The notes below the pieces were generated by a model. The model worked only from the letters and a program-made list of their open reading frames with translations. It did not search any database and was not told where the DNA came from. A stretch of 64,000 nucleotides of DNA from UHGV virus genome UHGV-1384413. One strand, written 5' to 3'. Each line of letters starts with the position of its first letter. The stretch's first letter is position 1. The translations under genes were made by a program, and so were the position numbers. Positions 277-55,620 of this stretch are shown piece by piece. Origin of the DNA: a virus.

Positions 277-323
277 GTTTATTTTTAGATGGCCTTGACT
301 CCAGGGCCATCAATAAAGTAAAC
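277..323. repeat. conserved 45-bp hairpin element, copy 1 (GATGGCC...GGCCATC stem)
   Basis: Near-identical sequence recurs at 907-953 and 4643-4689; sits directly after a stop codon. Confidence 0.6.
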
Positions 324-356
324 TAATCTCAGTTAAGCGAAAAAGGGGGCTTTAAG

Positions 357-476
357 ATGAGCACTACACGCCAATACACAAAGGTAACTATTATCGTTTG
401 CGTTGTCGGTTACATCCTGGCGCAAATGTTAATGAGTAGCGCTAACAGTTTTGCAAAATTTTTCTTAAATTTTTAA
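357..476 (+). CDS. small hydrophobic peptide (39 aa)
   Basis: ATG preceded by AAAAAGGGGG RBS; below ORF-track size cutoff; hydrophobic core. Confidence 0.35.
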   Translation: MSTTRQYTKVTIIVCVVGYILAQMLMSSANSFAKFFLNF

Positions 477-504
477 TTGACAAGCTAACTTAGATTGATA
501 TACT
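477..504 (+). promoter_or_regulatory. sigma70-like promoter (TTGACA-16-TATACT)
   Basis: Consensus -35 and -10 hexamers followed by conserved TAAACAC and CGGGAAAACTTCCC hairpin leader. Confidence 0.5.
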
Positions 505-555
505 TAAACACGTAAACGGGAAAACTTCCCAGAACACACAAAAGGAGAAAACATT

Positions 556-906
556 ATGAATACTTCCATCACTATGACCGCCGAAGAAAAAGCCCTGCAG
601 ATCGCCGCTCTGAAAAAACAGATTGCAGAACTTGAAGACAAGATCGACAATTTTGAAATCGACGAAGACAAATACGACGATAAATATGATGAATGGCTAG
701 ACGAAATCTATGGCGAAATTATGATCGGTTGTATCTCTTTTCTTCCGTCGCATATCCTCAAAGAGCTAGATCCTATCGCTTACCGCTGTGGCTTTAGTGA
801 TTATATTGATAGCCTAGATATTGAAGATGACGAAGACTATCAGGAATTGCAAGCGGAGCTTGAAGAAGTGAAAGAAGAGCTTGCAGAACTGGAAGAAAAC
901 GAGTAA
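556..906 (+). CDS. hypothetical acidic protein (116 aa)
   Basis: ATG with AAAAGGAGAAAACATT RBS; ORF followed by hairpin element. Confidence 0.6.
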   Translation: MNTSITMTAEEKALQIAALKKQIAELEDKIDNFEIDEDKYDDKYDEWLDEIYGEIMIGCISFLPSHILKELDPIAYRCGFSDYIDSLDIEDDEDYQELQAELEEVKEELAELEENE

Positions 907-953
907 GCTTATTTTTAGATGGCCTTGATTCCAGGGCCATCAATAAAGTAAAC
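907..953. repeat. conserved 45-bp hairpin element, copy 2
   Basis: Near-identical to 277-323. Confidence 0.6.
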
Positions 954-995
954 TTTACACTGTTAACACTGAACTAATACAGAGGAGTTAAAACC

Positions 996-1241
996 ATGGC
1001 CGCACTAATTACCAAATATTATGCCCCTACCAACACCAAAAGCGCCCGTATCATGGTAAAAGGCTTCGGACGTAAAAAGGTTTACACCTGGGATTATTCC
1101 CTAGACATGGAAGACAACTACACCAACGCAATGACCGATTTTATTAATGATCTGAATAAACAGATCTTGACCGACTACAAAGTGACCGATATTGCCTACG
1201 TCGGGGAAGGCGGGATCTGTTTTGTAGGCATTGTGAAATAG
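996..1241 (+). CDS. hypothetical protein (81 aa)
   Basis: ATG with AGAGGAG RBS. Confidence 0.55.
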   Translation: MAALITKYYAPTNTKSARIMVKGFGRKKVYTWDYSLDMEDNYTNAMTDFINDLNKQILTDYKVTDIAYVGEGGICFVGIVK

Positions 1242-1290
1242 TTATTTTTTCGGTGGTCCTGGCTGCAGGGCCATCTATAAAGATAATTTA
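1241..1290. repeat. degenerate copy of hairpin element
   Basis: T-run, GGCCCTGCAGCC-type palindrome, CATCTATAAAG tail resembling the 45-bp element. Confidence 0.4.
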
Positions 1291-1316
1291 TTAACACCAT
1301 GAAAGGAGAAAGTAAC

Positions 1317-1670
1317 ATGATCAGCGGTGCAAGTTTTATCATTGGCGCTATTGCTACGGCTTTAATTGTAAACAAGATCCAATCCAAAAACGAAAAAGAG
1401 AGCAACGCCTTTACAGAATACCCATTTTGGGTATTCAACGACAACGAAGACTATATAATCAAGTACAAGGATGAGAAGGGCGACCAGGTAACACCACGAC
1501 CGATCCCGGCTTACAAGATGCAAGAAACACTATACCGCCTAAAGGCTGGAGGCGCAAAAATCGTAGACTTTTGGGGATATGATTGCAAGGATCAGGAGGT
1601 TATAAAACGGCGTATCCGTGCGATTCAGGCAAATATTGAAATCAGTAAAGGGGGAAGTTATGAAAATTAA
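1317..1670 (+). CDS. hypothetical protein with N-terminal hydrophobic segment
   Basis: ATG at 1317 preceded by AAAGGAG; upstream in-frame ATG at 1299 lies inside the RBS. Confidence 0.55.
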   Translation: MISGASFIIGAIATALIVNKIQSKNEKESNAFTEYPFWVFNDNEDYIIKYKDEKGDQVTPRPIPAYKMQETLYRLKAGGAKIVDFWGYDCKDQEVIKRRIRAIQANIEISKGGSYEN

Positions 1671-1857
1671 TTTCGAAAAAATTGTAAAGCGCCCTCATGA
1701 TTCCGAAGAGTTGCCGAAACGCCGCCAGCGTAACAATAAACTGAATAAGCCAAAAAGGTTTGGGAAGATCTGGCGGAATCACTATGATCGCAAATTACCG
1801 GGCCTGCTTTTGGAACGTGAACGACAGGCAGAACGATACCGCCATAAAGACAAATAA
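1660..1857 (+). CDS. small basic protein (65 aa)
   Basis: ATG at 1660 with AAAGGGGGAAG RBS, overlaps upstream stop; followed by strong terminator. Confidence 0.5.
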   Translation: MKINFEKIVKRPHDSEELPKRRQRNNKLNKPKRFGKIWRNHYDRKLPGLLLERERQAERYRHKDK

Positions 1858-1864
1858 CAACCAA

Positions 1865-1893
1865 CGCCCCGCCATTGTGCGGGGCTTTTTATT
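1865..1893 (+). terminator. rho-independent terminator
   Basis: CCCCGC-CATTGT-GCGGGG hairpin followed by T-run. Confidence 0.75.
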
Positions 1894-2038
1894 TCTATCC
1901 CGCCGATAGCGCCCCTGGTTGGCCCCACAAGCCCCCTAAAAGCCCCTACCTATGCAATCCCCTTTCTTAACCTGAAAACAGCGCCCAGGGCCGTTTTATG
2001 GCGTTAAAAATATTATTGACAGTGATTTTATTTAAAGC

Positions 2039-2066
2039 TTGACATCTTAAACAGGTTAGATATACT
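2039..2066 (+). promoter_or_regulatory. sigma70-like promoter (TTGACA-16-TATACT)
   Basis: Consensus hexamers upstream of gene at 2099; a second TTGACA lies at 2016. Confidence 0.5.
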
Positions 2067-2098
2067 AACCACATCAAAGAGAGAAAGGAGTAAACGCC

Positions 2099-2359
2099 AT
2101 GCGTAAATTAAAAAATTTTGATAAGGTTGATGTTGTCCTGAATAATTTTTACTACTGCAACAACAAGGCCATTTGGTGGCGTGATAGTTCCACCGATAAA
2201 GTCAAGGCGCGCTTTCTCCAGGGGCACTGGCAAGGCCGCCCAGTGATTAAAATCATGGGGCAATTGGCAGCGTTTAAAAATTGCCGCCGTGTTGATGACG
2301 TTGAAGAGATTTTAAACATTTTGCGCCACAATAATTTAAAAAATAGCGTTGACAAGTAA
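2099..2359 (+). CDS. hypothetical protein (86 aa)
   Basis: ATG with GAAAGGAG RBS. Confidence 0.55.
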   Translation: MRKLKNFDKVDVVLNNFYYCNNKAIWWRDSSTDKVKARFLQGHWQGRPVIKIMGQLAAFKNCRRVDDVEEILNILRHNNLKNSVDK

Positions 2360-2376
2360 ATCTAGATAAGTATACT
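2349..2376 (+). promoter_or_regulatory. sigma70-like promoter (TTGACA-16-TATACT) with conserved leader
   Basis: Same promoter and leader architecture as 477-530. Confidence 0.5.
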
Positions 2377-2433
2377 TAAACACACAGGCGGGAAAACTTC
2401 CCGCCACTAACAAAGAAAATAGGAGAAAATATC

Positions 2434-3057
2434 ATGACCACCGTTAACATTACCACAGGTTACAATTTATCTTTCGACGTGCTGACCGATGAACAAAAAG
2501 AAAAAGCTATTGAAATGGTCCGCGAAAGAGAAGAACACAGCGGGGATAACTTTTTTGCAGAAAGTGTAATTGAAGACTATAAAGAATATATCTTTCCAGA
2601 GTATGGCCTTGAAGATACCAAGGTACATTGGTCCGGCTTTTGGTGCCAGGGTGACGGCGCGTCAATCAGTGCGGAAAACGTGGATTTAGAAAAATTCTTG
2701 CGTAAAGTCAAGTCTCTGACTAAATTCCGCTCAATTCGTCACTTGTTCGGCACAATGCACGATGGCGAGCTATCCGCAAGTGTTGAGCGTGATCCATATA
2801 GCCGCTATAGTCACGAAAACACTGTAAGCGGGTACATCGATACTACATGGCTAGACCTGACAGCCAAGCAAGAAAGTAAGGTTGAAGAGCTGGAAGAGTT
2901 GATCACCGAGACGGTGCGGGAGCTATCCCGCAAGGTTTACGTAGACCTGGAGCAAGCTTATCTTGAACAATTTACTACCGAAAACCTGATCGGCCTTATC
3001 GAGGCCAATGATTGGCGGTTTGATGTGGATGAATATGGCGAGATGACTTTTTCATAA
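2434..3057 (+). CDS. hypothetical protein (207 aa)
   Basis: ATG with AATAGGAGAAAATATC RBS; long ORF. Confidence 0.65.
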   Translation: MTTVNITTGYNLSFDVLTDEQKEKAIEMVREREEHSGDNFFAESVIEDYKEYIFPEYGLEDTKVHWSGFWCQGDGASISAENVDLEKFLRKVKSLTKFRSIRHLFGTMHDGELSASVERDPYSRYSHENTVSGYIDTTWLDLTAKQESKVEELEELITETVRELSRKVYVDLEQAYLEQFTTENLIGLIEANDWRFDVDEYGEMTFS

Positions 3058-3145
3058 ATAAAGTGTTGCAATAACCTAAAAACCTGCTATATTAAAACTC
3101 AAGGGGCAAGACGTTTGCCCCACACAAAACAAAGAGGAAAACATT

Positions 3146-3526
3146 ATGAAAAGCACCACTAAAGCCATTGACACCGTTATGTTTAACCTGGTTACCTTTC
3201 GTGAGGATATGAAAGATCTTCCACGTGAAACAGTGTGCGATCACATCGAAAACTATCGCAAACTGATCAAACAACTGCCTTTAAAACGTGACCAATATGC
3301 GGCTAACGCTATGCTTAACGCCATGATCAAAAAGATGATCCAGTGTGATTTAACTCTGGCCTATGATTATGCAGGCGGTCGTTTTGCAGTATACAATCAG
3401 CCCGTGCCCGGTATGAGCACCACTGAAGAATTGCACGCGTTAAATCTAAAACAAGATGTATGGGATAGCATGCCCCGCGTGGTGGTGTGGGCAGAAAGCG
3501 GAAAGATTTACGGCGATAATTTTTAA
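3146..3526 (+). CDS. hypothetical protein (126 aa)
   Basis: ATG with AAAGAGGAAAACATT RBS preceded by promoter-hairpin leader. Confidence 0.6.
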   Translation: MKSTTKAIDTVMFNLVTFREDMKDLPRETVCDHIENYRKLIKQLPLKRDQYAANAMLNAMIKKMIQCDLTLAYDYAGGRFAVYNQPVPGMSTTEELHALNLKQDVWDSMPRVVVWAESGKIYGDNF

Positions 3527-3536
3527 TCAGGTAACA

Positions 3537-3566
3537 GGCGGCGGCATATTTGCCGCCTTATTGTTA
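3537..3566 (+). terminator. putative rho-independent terminator
   Basis: GGCGGC-ATATTT-GCCGCC hairpin followed by TTATTGTT. Confidence 0.5.
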
Positions 3567-3593
3567 AGCAGAATTGTAAGAGAGGTACACAGA

Positions 3594-3965
3594 ATGGAAT
3601 TTATTATTTTGGCTGTATTAGTTGCCTTGTTCAACGCCTGGATAGCTGGCAAAACAGGTAGATCCGCTTTTCTATGGTTTGTTATATCTATTTTCCTGGG
3701 AGTGGTTGCAACCATTGTATTAGTTATCCTTGCAATTGTTGACAAGGATAATAATAAGAAAGGTAAAGTATTTTCCGACCTGTATGACGCTCAAACTTTT
3801 GTTAACGCCTATTATAGTGATCTTCCGGTCTCCTTGCGCTGCAGCCTAGCGCAACAAGTTTTCGATGAAGCTAAAACCAGAGAACAGGCCCATGAAATAT
3901 GTCTAACCGAGGCAGATCGCCTATTCGAGAGGAATAGAAAATATGTGGACCAGCCGTTTAAATAA
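3594..3965 (+). CDS. membrane protein (two predicted TM segments)
   Basis: ATG at 3594 with AGAGAGG RBS; hydrophobic N-terminal half. Confidence 0.55.
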   Translation: MEFIILAVLVALFNAWIAGKTGRSAFLWFVISIFLGVVATIVLVILAIVDKDNNKKGKVFSDLYDAQTFVNAYYSDLPVSLRCSLAQQVFDEAKTREQAHEICLTEADRLFERNRKYVDQPFK

Positions 3966-4075
3966 TGCCACGTTAATTAATCCCTTTAGTGAAGATTTGA
4001 AGCCAGCGGCCTGGCGTGAGGGATTCAACACAGAAAGATTTATTTTCAGGCCTGACCTTGAGGAATTTTATAACA

Positions 4076-4201
4076 ATGGATCGAACAACGACAGAGATAA
4101 TTTTTCTTGTAATGTGCGTGGTGATAATACTCCTGGGGGCCATTACAAACCACGTCACTGCTAACAGGAGGAAAGGGGGAGACGATGACAACCAAGGATA
4201 A
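4076..4201 (+). CDS. small membrane peptide (41 aa)
   Basis: ATG with GAGGA RBS; single hydrophobic helix. Confidence 0.3.
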   Translation: MDRTTTEIIFLVMCVVIILLGAITNHVTANRRKGGDDDNQG

Positions 4202-4304
4202 GCCCCGCACCGATAAGGTGCGCCGTGTTATGGTATGGCTTGAGATCATCGCCCTTGAAATATTGTTAGGCGTAGGGATGTACTTTATCGCTGTAAGTAA
4301 CTGA
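4185..4304 (+). CDS. small membrane peptide (39 aa)
   Basis: ATG with AGGAGGAAAGGGGGAG RBS; hydrophobic C-terminus; followed by terminator. Confidence 0.35.
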   Translation: MTTKDKPRTDKVRRVMVWLEIIALEILLGVGMYFIAVSN

Positions 4305-4306
4305 TA

Positions 4307-4340
4307 ACGGCCCCCAATCCCTGGGGGCTTAACTTTTTCA
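4307..4340 (+). terminator. rho-independent terminator
   Basis: GCCCCCA-ATCC-CTGGGGGC hairpin followed by T-rich tract. Confidence 0.55.
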
Positions 4341-4440
4341 AAAATTTTTCTTCTAGGGTGTTGCAATCCGGTCCGGAATATGGATAATAACAATCAACGG
4401 GGAGCAATCCCCACCACAAAGACTAGAAAGGAGAAACAAA

Positions 4441-4641
4441 ATGAGTAACAATATCCGCGTTATTAACTTCAAAAAAGAAGAAAAAATTGCCGTGCTGATT
4501 GACGGTCAAGAAATCTTTAAAGGTGATTATGAAGATCATCAAACGGCGATTAGTATCACTCGCGTGATTGGTTACCATAATTTTTACCCTCAAGGCGCTG
4601 AGGCAGCAGTAAAACGAATTAAAGAGATTGTAGGCCTGTAA
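4441..4641 (+). CDS. hypothetical protein (66 aa)
   Basis: ATG with AAAGGAGAAACAAA RBS; followed by hairpin element copy 3. Confidence 0.55.
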   Translation: MSNNIRVINFKKEEKIAVLIDGQEIFKGDYEDHQTAISITRVIGYHNFYPQGAEAAVKRIKEIVGL

Positions 4642-4642
4642 A

Positions 4643-4689
4643 ATTTATTTTTAGATGGCCTTGATTCCAGGGCCATCAATAAAGTAAAT
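4643..4689. repeat. conserved 45-bp hairpin element, copy 3
   Basis: Near-identical to 277-323 and 907-953. Confidence 0.6.
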
Positions 4690-4732
4690 TTAAACCCTGT
4701 TAAAATAATCAGTGCAAAAAGGAGTAATGATC

Positions 4733-5044
4733 ATGTTTATCCAGGCTAATAATCTTTATTTCTTTGATGGTCAGATCGTAGACGGCGTGGAGGTGGAAAT
4801 CACTGGGTGCCCTGGCGGTCAGGTTATGACTTTTCGGAATAATGCCTTTGATGATTCTCATATCGTTATGAGAATGGAAGTTAGTAAGCTGGATGATAAG
4901 AAAACATTGATTGACTATTCCGTCAAAGATCATCCAGACTACCACATGATCTATGGTGATTTGTGCATTGTTGACCGTGACAAGGTGAACGGCATTGTTA
5001 TAGCCATTGTGAACGATGTTTTCTCTGAGTATTCCGGCAAATGA
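4733..5044 (+). CDS. hypothetical protein (103 aa)
   Basis: ATG at 4733 with AAAAGGAG RBS. Confidence 0.55.
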   Translation: MFIQANNLYFFDGQIVDGVEVEITGCPGGQVMTFRNNAFDDSHIVMRMEVSKLDDKKTLIDYSVKDHPDYHMIYGDLCIVDRDKVNGIVIAIVNDVFSEYSGK

Positions 5045-6172: not shown

Positions 6173-6418
6173 ATGAAAAGCAATAAAGGTTATAACGGTC
6201 ACAAAAACAAAACTCATTGGAATGTAAGCCTTTGGATTAATAACGATGAATCATTATACTTATACGCTGTAGGCTTAATAAATGAGTGCGGCAATAAAGA
6301 TAAAGCGGCGGATCTAATGTGCTACAGATTAAAACAGGACGGAATCACTCATACACCTGATGGTTTCAAGTATAGTAAAACTGCAATCCGTGCCGCTATG
6401 GTAGGAATGAAACACTAA
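6173..6418 (+). CDS. hypothetical protein (81 aa)
   Basis: ATG with AAGAAGAGG RBS. Confidence 0.55.
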   Translation: MKSNKGYNGHKNKTHWNVSLWINNDESLYLYAVGLINECGNKDKAADLMCYRLKQDGITHTPDGFKYSKTAIRAAMVGMKH

Positions 6419-6492
6419 AAGCACATAGCCGCCTTACCCTGGGGCTGTGGTAGCGGCCCCATGAATAAGGTTACTAACAAAGAATAGAAAAC

Positions 6493-7535: not shown

Positions 7536-7746
7536 TCCTTATTGACTAGAAAACAGGGCTTGCAATGGTCCTGTTTTTTGTTATACTTATTCCACGGCAG
7601 GCACCTGGCGACGGGGGGAGACAATCACCGGGCCTGCCTGTCATATAAGAACTATAAAAACCGTTGACATCTGCCAGGGGGTGGGGTAACATTTATCTTG
7701 AAGGGGCAAAAGTGCCCACACAACAACCAGAAGAGAGGAAAACATT

Positions 7747-49850: not shown

Positions 49851-49923
49851 ACCAGTAAAAACTTAAACATCTGTACTATAAGGATTTGTATGTTTTATGT
49901 TCACTCTGGAACAGAGGTTAGTA

Positions 49924-50007
49924 ACTGTCCGTGATACGGACACTACTGTCCGTCACGCGGACACATCTGCCCGTAGTACGGACACTAACTGTCCGTGATA
50001 CGGACAC
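49924..50007. repeat. four tandem palindromic iterons (ACTGTCCGT-N3-ACGGACAC) at 21-22 bp spacing
   Basis: Copies start at 49924, 49945, 49966, 49988; each has dyad GTCCGT/ACGGAC. Confidence 0.8.
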
Positions 50008-50150
50008 ATAAAGAATATAACTAAAATAACTAAATAATAAAAATAAAAGATCTAGCACTTATGGTACTAAAGTACATATACTTAACTTATGTAGAATATA
50101 CTAGATCCTAAGTACCATGTTTTAAATTTATTACTTATTACTTATTATGG
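50008..50150. other. AT-rich tract with short direct repeats (candidate DNA unwinding element)
   Basis: ATAACTAAA and TTACTTATT repeats and a GGTACT...AGTACC inverted repeat directly after iterons. Confidence 0.5.
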
Positions 50151-50154
50151 GTAG

Positions 50155-50400
50155 TGTCGGCCCTTCATTGGCACTCGCCTACGAGGGGCGAGATGCCGGG
50201 CCTCCGTAGTGCACACAATAACAGAAGTGCATACATGCAGGACTGTTAACATGTGTGGGAGCGAAGCGATAGCGCAGGCCAAAGGCCGAGCACTAATGTG
50301 GATCACCGACGAAAGCTTGCCAGCGCCGGAAGGAGTCGGTTGAGAGCCTCCCGCGCGAGTTCTGATAAAGTTTATGTGTGGAAACTGACAAGAAGGCTCC
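50155..50400. other. GC-rich ORF-free island (candidate structured RNA or DNA element)
   Basis: Composition contrast with AT-rich flanks; no ORF with RBS. Confidence 0.3.
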
Positions 50401-52394: not shown

Positions 52395-52469
52395 GCCCTG
52401 TTAGCTTAGTGGATAAAGCAGCGGCCTTCTAAGCCGTTGACACTGGTTCGAGTCCAGTACGGGGTGCCA
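52395..52469 (+). tRNA. tRNA-Arg (anticodon TCT)
   Basis: Manual cloverleaf: acceptor, D, anticodon loop CTTCTAA, T-loop TTCGAGT, CCA encoded. Confidence 0.8.
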
Positions 52470-52473
52470 AATT

Positions 52474-52560
52474 GGGGAGTTATCCCGTAGAGGTAGCGGT
52501 GTAGACTGTAAATCTATTGTCATTGCGACTCGGGTGGTTCGACTCCACCACTCCCCACCA
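52474..52560 (+). tRNA. tRNA-Tyr (anticodon GTA), long variable arm
   Basis: Acceptor GGGGAGT/ACTCCCC, anticodon loop CTGTAAA, T-loop TTCGACT, CCA encoded. Confidence 0.75.
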
Positions 52561-52674
52561 AATTTACATTTTTAAATGCATAAATTATACAGATAATGAC
52601 ATTGATATTTATCGTCGTTTATACTAGTCACTAACTGCTCGAAAATCAGTGTCATTATCAGTGTAATTTATAAA

Positions 52675-52765
52675 GGAGAGTAGGGAGCAATGGTGCTCAA
52701 GCGGTCTTGAAAACCGTCCCATTGAGGACGACTTGATGATGGTTCGATTCCATTACTCTCCGCCA
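52675..52765 (+). tRNA. tRNA-Ser (anticodon TGA), long variable arm
   Basis: Acceptor GGAGAGT/ACTCTCC, anticodon loop CTTGAAA, 20-nt variable arm, CCA encoded. Confidence 0.8.
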
Positions 52766-52863
52766 TATTGTTAACCTTGTAATTAAGCGAAAGCCGGAAG
52801 CAGAACCGGATTATCAAATGTTACAGTCGTCATCGCCGACTAGCAACATGGTTAACATTATTC

Positions 52864-52960
52864 GCTAGGTAAGCCCTTTGGCAAGGGCGAGGATTTTTAA
52901 TCCTGAAAATAGACGAGGTAGTCGTTGAATACATAGGTGGTTCGATTCCATCACCTAGCA
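52864..52960 (+). tRNA. atypical tRNA-like gene (possible anticodon TTT) with about 30-nt variable region
   Basis: Perfect 7-bp acceptor stem, D-arm and T-arm; anticodon stem only 4 bp; no CCA encoded. Confidence 0.45.
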
Positions 52961-52966
52961 CCTTTT

Positions 52967-53042
52967 GCTGATGTAGCACAATTGGCAGTGCAATTGATTT
53001 GTAATCAATAGGTTGCAGGTTCAAGTCCTGCCATCAGCACCA
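52967..53042 (+). tRNA. tRNA-Thr (anticodon TGT)
   Basis: Canonical cloverleaf, anticodon loop TTTGTAA, CCA encoded. Confidence 0.85.
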
Positions 53043-53043
53043 T

Positions 53044-53118
53044 GGCCCTGTAGCTGGAAGGTTCAAGCAAGCGACTCATAATCGCCAGACGGTGGTTCAA
53101 TTCCACCCAGGGCCACCA
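53044..53118 (+). tRNA. tRNA-Met/Ile2 (anticodon CAT)
   Basis: Acceptor GGCCCTG/CAGGGCC, anticodon loop CTCATAA, T-loop TTCAATT, CCA encoded. Confidence 0.75.
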
Positions 53119-53129
53119 AATAATAAATA

Positions 53130-53206
53130 CTCCGCGTAGCTCAGCTTGGTAGAGCGCCTGATTTGGGATCAGGAGGTCGAGTGTTCGAATCACTCCGTGG
53201 AGACCA
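53130..53206 (+). tRNA. tRNA-Pro (anticodon TGG)
   Basis: D-arm TAGCTCAGCTTGGTAGAGC, anticodon loop TTTGGGA, T-loop TTCGAAT, CCA encoded. Confidence 0.8.
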
Positions 53207-54311: not shown

Positions 54312-54736
54312 TGTCTAAGATTTACGGACCGTGTTCTGAAAAGCAGAAGATGATCCTAGAGAACGATGCAGATATTTTGGTGATCGGAGGTGCAGCTGGG
54401 TCTGGCAAGTCGTTCCTCTTGCAGCTAATGCCGCTTAAAATTATTGATGACCCGCACAGCTCTGTGGTTATGTTCCGAAGAACAACTCCCCAGTTGGAAG
54501 GTGAGGGTGGGCTATGGCCTAAAGCAGTAGCTATTTACAGTGATCTGCCTGAAAACATTAAACCAAAGTTCAGAGAGAAGGATCATAAGTTTATTTTTCC
54601 ACGGTTTGATCCGAGCACTGGCAAGTGGGATAGGAGCAAAAAGGGGGCCGTTGTAAAATACTGCCACATGGAGTATGTCCAAGATAAGCTTAACCATCAA
54701 GGCCTTGAGTACACCATGGTTTGCTTCGATGAGGGT
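54311..54736 (+). CDS. terL: terminase large subunit, exon 1 (ATPase N-terminal part)
   Basis: Walker A GGAAGSGKS; ORF ends right after Walker B-like MVCFDEG; AAGGAGAG RBS. Confidence 0.65.
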
Positions 54737-55620
54737 TAATTTGTAGCTCTCGTAAAACCTCCCTAATTGCGGGGAAATCTTTATTATTGACACCACCAAC
54801 CTGTCATGGTAACATGATAGAGGCTTCGAAGAGAGATCGAAGGTATGGTAACAGTGTGTTAATTTAGATAATCCGCAGCGAAGCATCCGAGAGGATGAAC
54901 GTTCAACGACTAGTCGAAAGACGTAGAATCAAGCGATTCGAAACGGGAGGGTGAATGTGTAATACTAAAAAAATGTATGGATTGCCAAAGAGTTCTGCCT
55001 CTTGATGATTTCTTTTTATCATCTAAGAGCAAGGATGGATACTCAGGTACATGCAAGGAATGCTATATGTACTACAGGAAGAATGGATCTCGTAGAAACA
55101 AAAATATGGTTAAGAGAGATGATGCAGCATCTTTTGTTCAAGACTTGCTGAAGAAAGGTGAGCTTTTTGAATGTAAATCTTGTCATGAAAGTATGCTTGC
55201 TGATAGTTTTTACACAAAGCGTGACTATGGTAAAGTGTATCTGGTTACGAACAGGTGTAAGATGTGTGAAAAGTTTTATCAGATTGAGAAGAAATTTCAC
55301 ATAACAAAAGATGAATACTATCGTTTACTCTCAGATCAAGATCATAAGTGTGCCATTTGTAGAATATCTCTTGATGAGTATAGGACGCAAGGGTACAGAG
55401 ATTTCTTTTGTGTTGATCATGACCATAAAACTGGTGCTGTAAGAGGGTTGCTTTGTGATAAATGCAACAGAGCTTTAGGGTTCTTCCAAGAGGATGAGGA
55501 AACCATTCTTAGAGCAGCAGAGTATTTGCACATTCATAAGATATAGTCTGGTCTGCATGGAGACATGCAGCTGCCTGAAAATGGCGGGGCAAGACTAGCG
55601 ACCTTGCCCGAACATAAACG
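54737..55620 (+). mobile_element. putative group I intron carrying an HNH homing endonuclease gene
   Basis: Interrupts terL after Walker B; last exon base is T and last intron base is G; boundaries inferred. Confidence 0.5.
54977..55546 (+). CDS. HNH homing endonuclease
   Basis: CxxC zinc sites and DHDHKTGAVRGLLCDKCN HNH core. Confidence 0.7.
   Translation: MDCQRVLPLDDFFLSSKSKDGYSGTCKECYMYYRKNGSRRNKNMVKRDDAASFVQDLLKKGELFECKSCHESMLADSFYTKRDYGKVYLVTNRCKMCEKFYQIEKKFHITKDEYYRLLSDQDHKCAICRISLDEYRTQGYRDFFCVDHDHKTGAVRGLLCDKCNRALGFFQEDEETILRAAEYLHIHKI

Follow-up and report, generated by a model that had tools for sequence, protein, structure and literature searches.

The virus genome stretch UHGV-1384413 (64,000 nt; the whole of it is referred to here as the window) contains, within an array of small early genes, four copies of an intergenic element that combines promoter-like boxes with an RNA hairpin. 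We consider it probable that this element is a composite regulatory cassette between genes, of the PeSL (promoter-early stem-loop) type, in which a host sigma-70 promoter is overlaid with a strong RNA hairpin. The element is repeated, its helix is maintained through compensatory and wobble changes, its -10 region recurs unchanged in an ordinary promoter, and recombination products are found at its copies; from these observations we infer that the promoter would fire and that the hairpin would have an effect on RNA. Over its first 6 kb the window showed 92-94% identity to rV5-like coliphages (genus Vequintavirus), among them Phage 203, rV5, Murica, and Gotham, and the equivalent region of rV5 runs from ORF195 to ORF172, an array of small genes of unknown function that, according to the rV5 genome paper, sits inside the transcription unit "genes 10-1-238-164". 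All genes in the element region of the window are on the + strand. The rV5 genome paper lists promoters and terminators, and the 47-base element is absent from them.

The 24-nt core of the element, GATGGCCTTGAYTCCAGGGCCATC, was found on the + strand at 288-311, 918-941, and 4654-4677, compared to 0.00 matches in 100 shuffles. A repeat finder returned one family of four 63-nt copies (274-336, 904-966, 1238-1300, and 4640-4702, with 100, 89, 63, and 81% identity to the reference copy, respectively), and a covariance model built on 30 distinct copies scored the four sites at 72-84 bits, with E-values of 1e-15 to 1e-18. An earlier note on this DNA had described three near-identical copies (277-323, 907-953, and 4643-4689) and a degenerate one (1241-1290), each immediately after a stop codon, and the searches bore this out, with the start of the copy lying 0-1 nt past the stop codon in four of four cases. 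The length of 45 bp given in the note proved too short, as the conserved unit extends over approximately 63 nt and includes a YNGTTAA motif about 7-13 nt past the 3' arm of the hairpin. Copy 1 (274-336, 84 bits) follows a TAA at 274-276, and the next gene starts at 357. Copy 2 (904-966, 80.4 bits) follows a TAA at 904-906, with its hairpin at 906-954, its tetraloop ATTC at 928-931, and the next gene starting at 996. Copy 3 (4640-4702, 81.8 bits) follows a TAA at 4639-4641, with its hairpin at 4642-4690, its tetraloop, again ATTC, at 4664-4667, and the next gene starting at 4733. The diverged copy (1238-1300, 71.9 bits) follows a TAG at 1239-1241; its two-tier hairpin is located at 1240-1288 and the next gene starts at 1317. 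All four are on the + strand.

A search for the motif elsewhere in the genome and in relatives, which the earlier note had proposed, was carried out. The covariance model detected no further copies in the rest of the 64-kb window or elsewhere in the complete 137,947-bp rV5 genome, so that the window and rV5 have four copies only, confined to one 4.4-kb stretch. A BLAST analysis with the element matched 121 phage records, nearly all at about three places each, and among the matches listed all look rV5-like except one, phage KKE7M. A scan of IMG/VR with a 17-mer gave 15 loci, with true copies in rV5-like contigs only, and the covariance model gave no credible match on the single-match IMG/VR contigs that it searched. 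A metagenome scan with a degenerate core gave 52 loci, with full copies in just five rV5-like contigs and the remainder being unrelated GC-rich hairpins of about 30 bits. Permissive and gathering-threshold searches of Rfam found no family for the element, the best overlaps being SurC (30.7, threshold 80) and rhtB (24.2, threshold 55). In tblastn searches with the flanking proteins, homologs of the gene after copy 3 were found in close rV5-like relatives only, and the gene after copy 2 had only remote homologs, in unrelated phages; they allowed no deeper orthologous comparison. Among orthologous copies, the mean pairwise identity of the element was 0.93-0.97, versus values of 0.81-0.91 in the spacer that follows it and 0.89-0.94 in the coding sequence that precedes it. 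A dispersed repeat of the repetitive extragenic palindromic (REP) or miniature inverted-repeat transposable element (MITE) kind was ruled out, as there are four copies, all directly past stop codons, in a single 4.4-kb stretch.

As sense-strand RNA, every copy adopts the same fold in two tiers: a lower stem of 10 bp, rich in A/U, is separated by a 2x3 internal loop from an upper stem of 10 bp, rich in G/C, which is capped by a tetraloop. In copy 1 the lower stem pairs 276-285 with 315-324, the internal loop consists of 286-287 and 312-314, and the upper stem pairs 288-297 with 302-311 around the tetraloop ACTC at 298-301. Fold energies of the + strand were -25.0 kcal/mol (z -6.05) for copy 1, -22.3 kcal/mol (z -5.09) for copy 2, -23.6 kcal/mol (z -5.57) for copy 3, and -22.4 kcal/mol (z -4.63) for the diverged copy. 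The antisense RNA folds less well (-16 to -18 kcal/mol) because several of the pairs are G.U, and the minus strand of the diverged copy showed no significant fold as single-stranded DNA (z -1.0). The T-run ahead of the hairpin and the A-rich tract after it are as the earlier note had claimed, and so is the absence of a canonical intrinsic terminator in either orientation. No U-tract follows the hairpin, the tail being AAUAAAGUAAAC (AAUAAAG) after the upper stem and UAAUCUCA, UUUACACU, or UUAAACCC after the extended stem, and a terminator scan reported none of the four copies while finding ordinary U-tract terminators nearby at 1866-1885, 3536-3558, and 4309-4329. A canonical intrinsic terminator was rejected for this lack of a U-tract on either strand.

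To compare the copies, sequences were taken from 14 Vequintavirus genomes, several metagenomic contigs, and one phi92-like phage. The stems of the main copies are nearly invariant across genomes, and the substitutions that do occur are in the tetraloop (ACTC, ATTC, ACTT, ACAC, ACCC, ACGC, and ACAT) and in the 3' strand of the internal loop, where AAU is replaced by GAU, AAAU, or AGU. In the alignment of 30 distinct copies 98.2% of cells were paired, versus 35-56% when the 3' partners were slid by 1-3 columns. Two-sided changes were found at four lower-stem pairs, namely 7-53 (AU/GC/GU), 8-52 (UA/CG), 10-50 (UA/AU/GU), and 11-49 (AU/UA). Four pairs of the upper stem showed a one-sided change, and all but one cell (27-32) were still paired as G.U, which holds on the + strand only; G.U pairs are found at alignment columns 12-48 and 25-34. 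The diverged copy, at 63% identity to the reference, retains all 20 pairs and the loop sizes by means of G.U wobbles and a compensatory swap. Breaks in the pairing exist and are clustered in copy 1, where Gotham has a 5-bp deletion and ECML-10 an A to T change in the 3' arm; in the diverged copy of Pr121LW the loop-closing pair is lost. We conclude from this comparison that the sense-strand RNA helix appears to be under selection, and the hairpin very probably has a selected role at the RNA level.

The second part of the element, its sigma-70 -35 and -10 boxes, is a feature absent from the earlier note. A promoter scan identified TTGACT-18-TAAACT at 295-324 in copy 1, matching 9 of 12 consensus positions, with the -35 box at 295-300, the -10 box at 319-324, and the conserved CAGTTAA at 330-336. 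The corresponding boxes are TTGATT (925-930) and TAAACT (949-954) in copy 2, and TTGATT (4661-4666) and TAAATT (4685-4690) in copy 3; the diverged copy has a weak -35-like CTGGCT (1259-1264), a 17-bp spacer, and a -10-like GATAAT (1282-1287). The general form of the -35 box is TTGAYT, and TTGACA occurs in the ACAC-loop variants of some genomes. The -35 box is placed in the upper stem and loop, and the -10 box (TAAAYT) in the 3' lower arm. Upstream of the -35 box is a T-rich tract, with the stop codon TAA or TAG followed by GTTTATTTTTA in four of four copies. The conserved YNGTTAA, 7-13 nt past the -10 box, resembles the start region of neighbouring consensus promoters, and the downstream ATG is located 30-43 nt past the -10 hexamer with a Shine-Dalgarno (SD) sequence ahead of it.

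The hexamers TAAACT and TAAATT also serve as the -10 boxes of ordinary TTGACA or TTGCAA promoters in phages phi92 and phAPEC8. The promoter before phi92 gp235 and its phAPEC8 homolog reads TTGCAA-16-TAAACT, its 13-nt -10 region AATAAAGTAAACT matches the 3' arm of the element at every position, and the promoter and the element can be aligned from end to end. This phi92 promoter shows no significant fold (-4.5 kcal/mol, z 0), whereas the KKE7M copy of the element folds at -25.3 kcal/mol (z -6.8); the hairpin is therefore something added to a promoter whose layout is otherwise ordinary. A survey of the early regions of the window, phi92, phAPEC8, and KKE7M revealed a standard unit consisting of an AT-rich tract, TTGACA or TTGCAA, a spacer of 16-17 bp, the -10 box, about 10 nt, and a GC-rich hairpin in the 5' untranslated region (5'-UTR), after which come an ACAAAGA-type linker, an SD sequence, and the ATG. 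In the window such units are found at 477-542, 2349-2414, 3066-3121, 4361-4416, and 7664-7720, the units at 477-542 and 2349-2414 having 76% identity over 66 nt, and near-identical 5'-UTR hairpins (GGCGGGAAATGGTTTCCCGCC) recur in phi92, phAPEC8, and KKE7M. In KKE7M the boxes of the element precede the downstream gene's 5'-UTR hairpin by 10-11 nt, the distance seen in every canonical unit. The promoter boxes are credible on account of this survey, the -10 identity with phi92 and phAPEC8, and the canonical spacing in KKE7M, and it is likely that the three main copies have measurable promoter activity. The PhagePromoter annotation of Gotham calls the same boxes, and the annotation of Murica labels two copies as terminators. 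The two annotations thus give different labels, promoter and terminator, to the same 45 bp, and both can be accommodated by a composite reading.

The copies also bear the marks of recombination with one another. A rare loop variant was shared by two paralogous copies in 6 of 18 genomes; the permutation mean was 1.26, and none of 20,000 permutations reached 6. Copies 2 and 3 share ATTC in the window, ACTT in rV5, and ACAC in one metagenomic genome, and copies 1 and 2 share ACAC in JLBYU08 and JEP1 and ACTT in a gut metagenome. Some of these six genomes are related, so the independent conversion events number fewer than six. Gene conversion between paralogous copies thus seems evident from the shared variants, and much of the identity between copies appears to come from it and does not demand a sequence-specific function. 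The earlier note had argued from the conservation to such a function. This stands to the extent that the element is more conserved than its flanks, and fails in that much of the identity is from gene conversion and that the diverged copy keeps the helix, not the sequence. Of the functions that the note had proposed, protein binding found no support, an RNA processing site may apply, and a recombination hotspot is directly supported by the chimeric junctions described below.

Between copies 1 and 2 lies a cassette on the + strand (325-905) that contains a 39-aa open reading frame (ORF; 357-476), the promoter TTGACA-16-TATACT (477-504) with its 5'-UTR hairpin, and a 116-aa ORF (556-906). Window positions 325-905 are deleted in phage magaca and in contig IMGVR_UViG_2051223002_000007 (a 581-nt gap with a 49-nt junction overlap), and each retains a single chimeric element, flanked on its left as copy 1 is and on its right as copy 2 is. 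The deletions may be independent, since neither the loop variant nor the type of the diverged copy is the same in these two genomes. In KKE7M, the element has moved between phage groups. This phage is a Justusliebigvirus of the Stephanstirmvirinae, phi92-like and of another subfamily than the rV5-like Vequintavirinae, and it carries window positions 476-952, comprising the promoter, the 5'-UTR hairpin, the 116-aa gene, and the element, at 86% identity. Three-way alignments placed the left crossover in the promoter spacer, where TTGACAAGATAACTAAAAT is common with the phi92 gp234 promoter, and the right crossover at the -10 box, within the shared ATAAAGTAAA. The net result is an rV5-type gene in place of phi92 gp234, with the element as the 3' border of the transferred cassette. 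A comparison of 15 genomes over 7 kb showed four cassette indels in all. Window positions 2344-3055, containing a promoter and a 207-aa gene, are lost in YP-6 with the junction between two -35 regions; positions 6188-6479, containing an 81-aa gene, are absent in rV5 and Gotham with a 33-nt repeat overlap at the junction; and a 364-nt extra gene (at window 5025/5044) is present in Murica, Phage 203, JLBYU08, and YP-6. Judging from their junctions, the indels at 2344-3055 and 6188-6479, in the same 7 kb, have regulatory repeats at their borders as well.

The known system that most of these features recall is that of the PeSLs, first described in phage RB49. In T4-like phages (RB49/phi1, PST/T4, and nt-1/KVP40) these consist of a stop codon in an AT-rich tract, sigma-70 boxes, an overlapping or intervening stem-loop with G.T pairs, and the SD sequence and ATG of a small ORFan (Arbiol et al. 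2010, PMC2839356; Comeau et al. 2014, PMC4122927). Their copies are concentrated in hyperplastic regions, where recombination between them causes ORFans to be lost, gained, or exchanged, so that chimeric PeSLs remain, with crossovers near the -10 box and the SD sequence (PMC2839356; PMC4122927). Further marks of PeSLs are promoter and terminator/attenuator activity in reporter assays and the formation of mini-circles. The element has the same order of parts, from the stop codon in an AT-rich tract to the SD sequence and ATG of a small ORFan. It likewise has sigma-70 -35 and -10 boxes (weak in the diverged copy) overlapped by a stable stem-loop with G.U/G.T pairs, and in both cases the setting is an indel-rich early region of ORFans, in which a single chimeric element is left where a cassette was lost and crossovers fall in the -10/SD zone. 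The differences are that the host is an rV5-like phage of the Vequintavirinae and not a T4-like phage, that the hairpin is much longer, with 20 bp in two tiers and a lower stem that pairs the upstream T-tract with the -10 region under compensatory evolution, and that the boxes are weaker and have an 18-bp spacer, compared to about 17 bp in PeSLs; the shared features are all at the sequence level. In a literature search, PeSLs were not found to be reported outside of T4-like phages and cyanophages. In the 107.8-132.4 kb region of rV5, the small early ORFs 167, 205, 206, 209/Tk.4, 210, and 231 are annotated as similar to RB49 proteins, which hints at possible exchange of ORFans between T4-like and rV5-like groups. 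A second comparison is with the morons and the boundary or linker sequences of lambdoid phages (Hendrix and colleagues; the modular theory of Botstein), as discussed in PMC2839356. Morons are believed to insert illegitimately, with no need of conserved flanks. As with morons, a promoter-gene-hairpin module moves between phages in KKE7M, but here both crossovers are within short shared regulatory sequence.

A number of observations weigh against a composite promoter-hairpin cassette. The boxes match just 9 of 12 positions, their 18-bp spacer is suboptimal, and the promoter scan of 12 kb gave 42 such matches versus 29.9 expected, so that by chance about one arises per 800 strand-positions. The diverged copy has a poor -35 box (CTGGCT) and 8 of 12 matches with its hairpin retained, and by this comparison the helix, and not the promoter, appears to be the feature common to all four copies. 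The evidence for the helix is itself limited in that only a handful of covariation events arose independently (possibly four two-sided changes and six wobbles), and the cell counts mostly reflect the split between main and diverged copies. The terminator half of the PeSL concept is doubtful here because the hairpin lacks a U-tract, and the strict family has four copies per genome, while PeSLs are described as numerous and spread over hyperplastic regions; promoter-plus-hairpin units of other sequence are common beside the strict four-copy family. A literature search for a Vequintavirus transcriptome found none, the one candidate paper having sequenced a T5-like phage.

The main rival explanation is that the element is purely an RNase III processing signal like R0.3 to R1.3 of phage T7, at which the polycistronic early mRNA would be cut in or near the internal loop; the cistrons would thereby be separated and the upper hairpin left as a protective 3' end, with the hexamers being relics or chance. 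The early RNase III sites of T7 often adjoin promoters. When the T7 early intergenic regions containing sites R0.3, R0.5, R1, R1.1, and R1.3 (presumably at the positions given by Dunn & Studier 1983) were folded for comparison, hairpins comparable to the element were obtained. Both are repeated, conserved hairpin families whose members follow stop codons in an array of early genes that the host polymerase transcribes, and both have an upper stem of 9-10 bp, an internal loop, and a lower stem, although the internal loops of T7 are larger and its lower stems shorter. The geometry of the element, 10 + 10 bp around a small asymmetric internal loop, is in keeping with the helix of approximately 22 bp for which the enzyme has room (PMC6212723), and the diverged copy shares this geometry (two 10-bp stems, a 2x3 loop between them, and a tetraloop). 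An extra weak AU stem has been selected that brings the helix to about 20 bp, suggesting a factor that measures helix length, and the constraint is specific to the sense strand. However, the T7 hairpins are located downstream of or between phage promoters, in the transcripts that these start, whereas the hairpin here is upstream of the putative start and would be carried by read-through RNA only. A comparison of the covariance model with T7 gave no match, there is no sequence similarity to the T7 sites, and neither the identity of the 3' arm to the -10 region of a real promoter nor the canonical -10-to-hairpin spacing in the KKE7M hybrid is explained by processing alone. We regard a signal of this sort and nothing more as unlikely. 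The two readings are not mutually exclusive, since RNase III could also act on the hairpin of a PeSL-like cassette.

It is somewhat less likely still that the element acts only as an attenuator or 3'-end stabiliser of the upstream gene, that is, as a weak non-canonical terminator or exonuclease barrier with neither promoter activity nor RNase III cleavage. The stable hairpin starting directly past the stop codon, the terminator calls of the Murica annotators, the place of the element at the 3' border of the KKE7M cassette, and the lowering of downstream reporter expression by PeSL stem-loops in T4-like phages (PMC2839356) fit such a role. Yet there is no U-tract past either the upper or the extended stem, the terminator scan is silent, the ordinary terminators found nearby indicate that the phage uses these where they are needed, and a barrier hairpin requires neither conserved internal-loop geometry nor an AU lower stem. 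A DNA operator has very little to recommend it. The inverted repeat GATGGCC-N10-GGCCATC, over the -35 box and spacer, would bind a dimeric phage or host regulator by which these promoters are switched; this palindrome does overlap a promoter-like site, and the stems hardly vary between genomes. However, its imperfections are all of the G.T type on the + strand, and so A.C on the other, which fits RNA and not a symmetric DNA site, and in the diverged copy two of seven positions have changed in one half-site with the RNA pairs kept. Compensatory changes also reach the AU lower stem, well outside a plausible operator, and none of ten nearby proteins scanned matched a DNA-binding family. A DNA cruciform or operator was rejected, as the pairing is strand-asymmetric. 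Equally slight is the chance of a functionless relic, a duplicated intergenic segment whose similarity is kept only by gene conversion. Concerted evolution is evident, and copy 1 is damaged or lost in viable phages (the Gotham 5-bp deletion, the ECML-10 A to T change, and the magaca deletion), but the diverged copy, at 63%, is too different for homogenisation and yet keeps all 20 pairs by compensatory and wobble changes, and orthologous copies are more conserved than the adjacent coding sequence.

Under the favoured composite cassette, the 3' half of the element would, as double-stranded DNA, be a host sigma-70 promoter from which the host RNA polymerase would restart about 7 nt past the -10 box for the small downstream gene. 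In transcripts arriving from an upstream consensus promoter, such as that at 477-504, 47 nt would fold right past the stop codon into the 20-bp two-tier hairpin. This would mark the 3' border of the upstream cistron, whether by attenuating read-through, by blocking 3' exonucleases, or as an RNase III site. As the copies are nearly identical over 47-63 bp, the phage or host recombination machinery could use them as homology patches for conversion, for loss of cassettes, and for exchange of promoter-gene-hairpin modules with other phages. A stronger version, which we put forward tentatively, is one of dual coding: the same 47 bp would be a working sigma-70 promoter and, in read-through RNA, a length-measured 20-bp hairpin for RNase III or a phage RNA-binding factor, with the T-tract and -10 box co-evolving and the whole being a portable homology patch for the exchange of early-gene cassettes between Vequintavirinae and Stephanstirmvirinae.

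Several other features of the window and its relatives were noted. Eight of ten proteins flanking the copies gave no match in a Pfam scan, and a 65-aa product (1660-1857, + strand) matches Phage_1_1, the T7 gp1.1 family, with an E-value of 4e-10, above the curated cut-off. Approximately 17-22 GenBank records in the MG0656xx series, named 'Campylobacter phage' with host C. jejuni, have about 92% identity to rV5-like coliphages across the region, and by this similarity their host labels look doubtful. A cluster of seven tRNAs is located at 52395-53206 (+ strand), with Arg-TCT, Tyr, Ser, Thr, Met, Pro, and an odd 99-nt call with a 4-nt anticodon at 52864-52962. At 54727-55570 (+ strand) there is a match to the Rfam group I intron at 50.9 bits (gathering score 50). 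In rV5, the annotation of the large terminase gene, which lies past the tRNA cluster, joins three pieces and has an HNH homing endonuclease inside, and this split gene and the intron match may be the same feature. Four tandem units of 21-22 nt at 49922-50007, each a small hairpin TGTCCGT-NNNN-ACGGACA and with units 1 and 4 identical, are followed by about 150 nt of very AT-rich sequence (50008-50160), and from its layout this looks like an iteron/origin-like or protein-binding array.

The element is neither a canonical terminator nor a new class, but probably a PeSL-like cassette in a phage group for which none had been described, with unusually clear natural products of recombination. It provides a small test case in which a single sequence would be under constraint as promoter DNA and as helical RNA at once. 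That rV5-like and phi92-like phages show PeSL logic as well points to conserved regulatory motifs as a general means of shuffling small early genes among large virulent coliphages, and many such small early genes are candidates for functions in host takeover or anti-defence.

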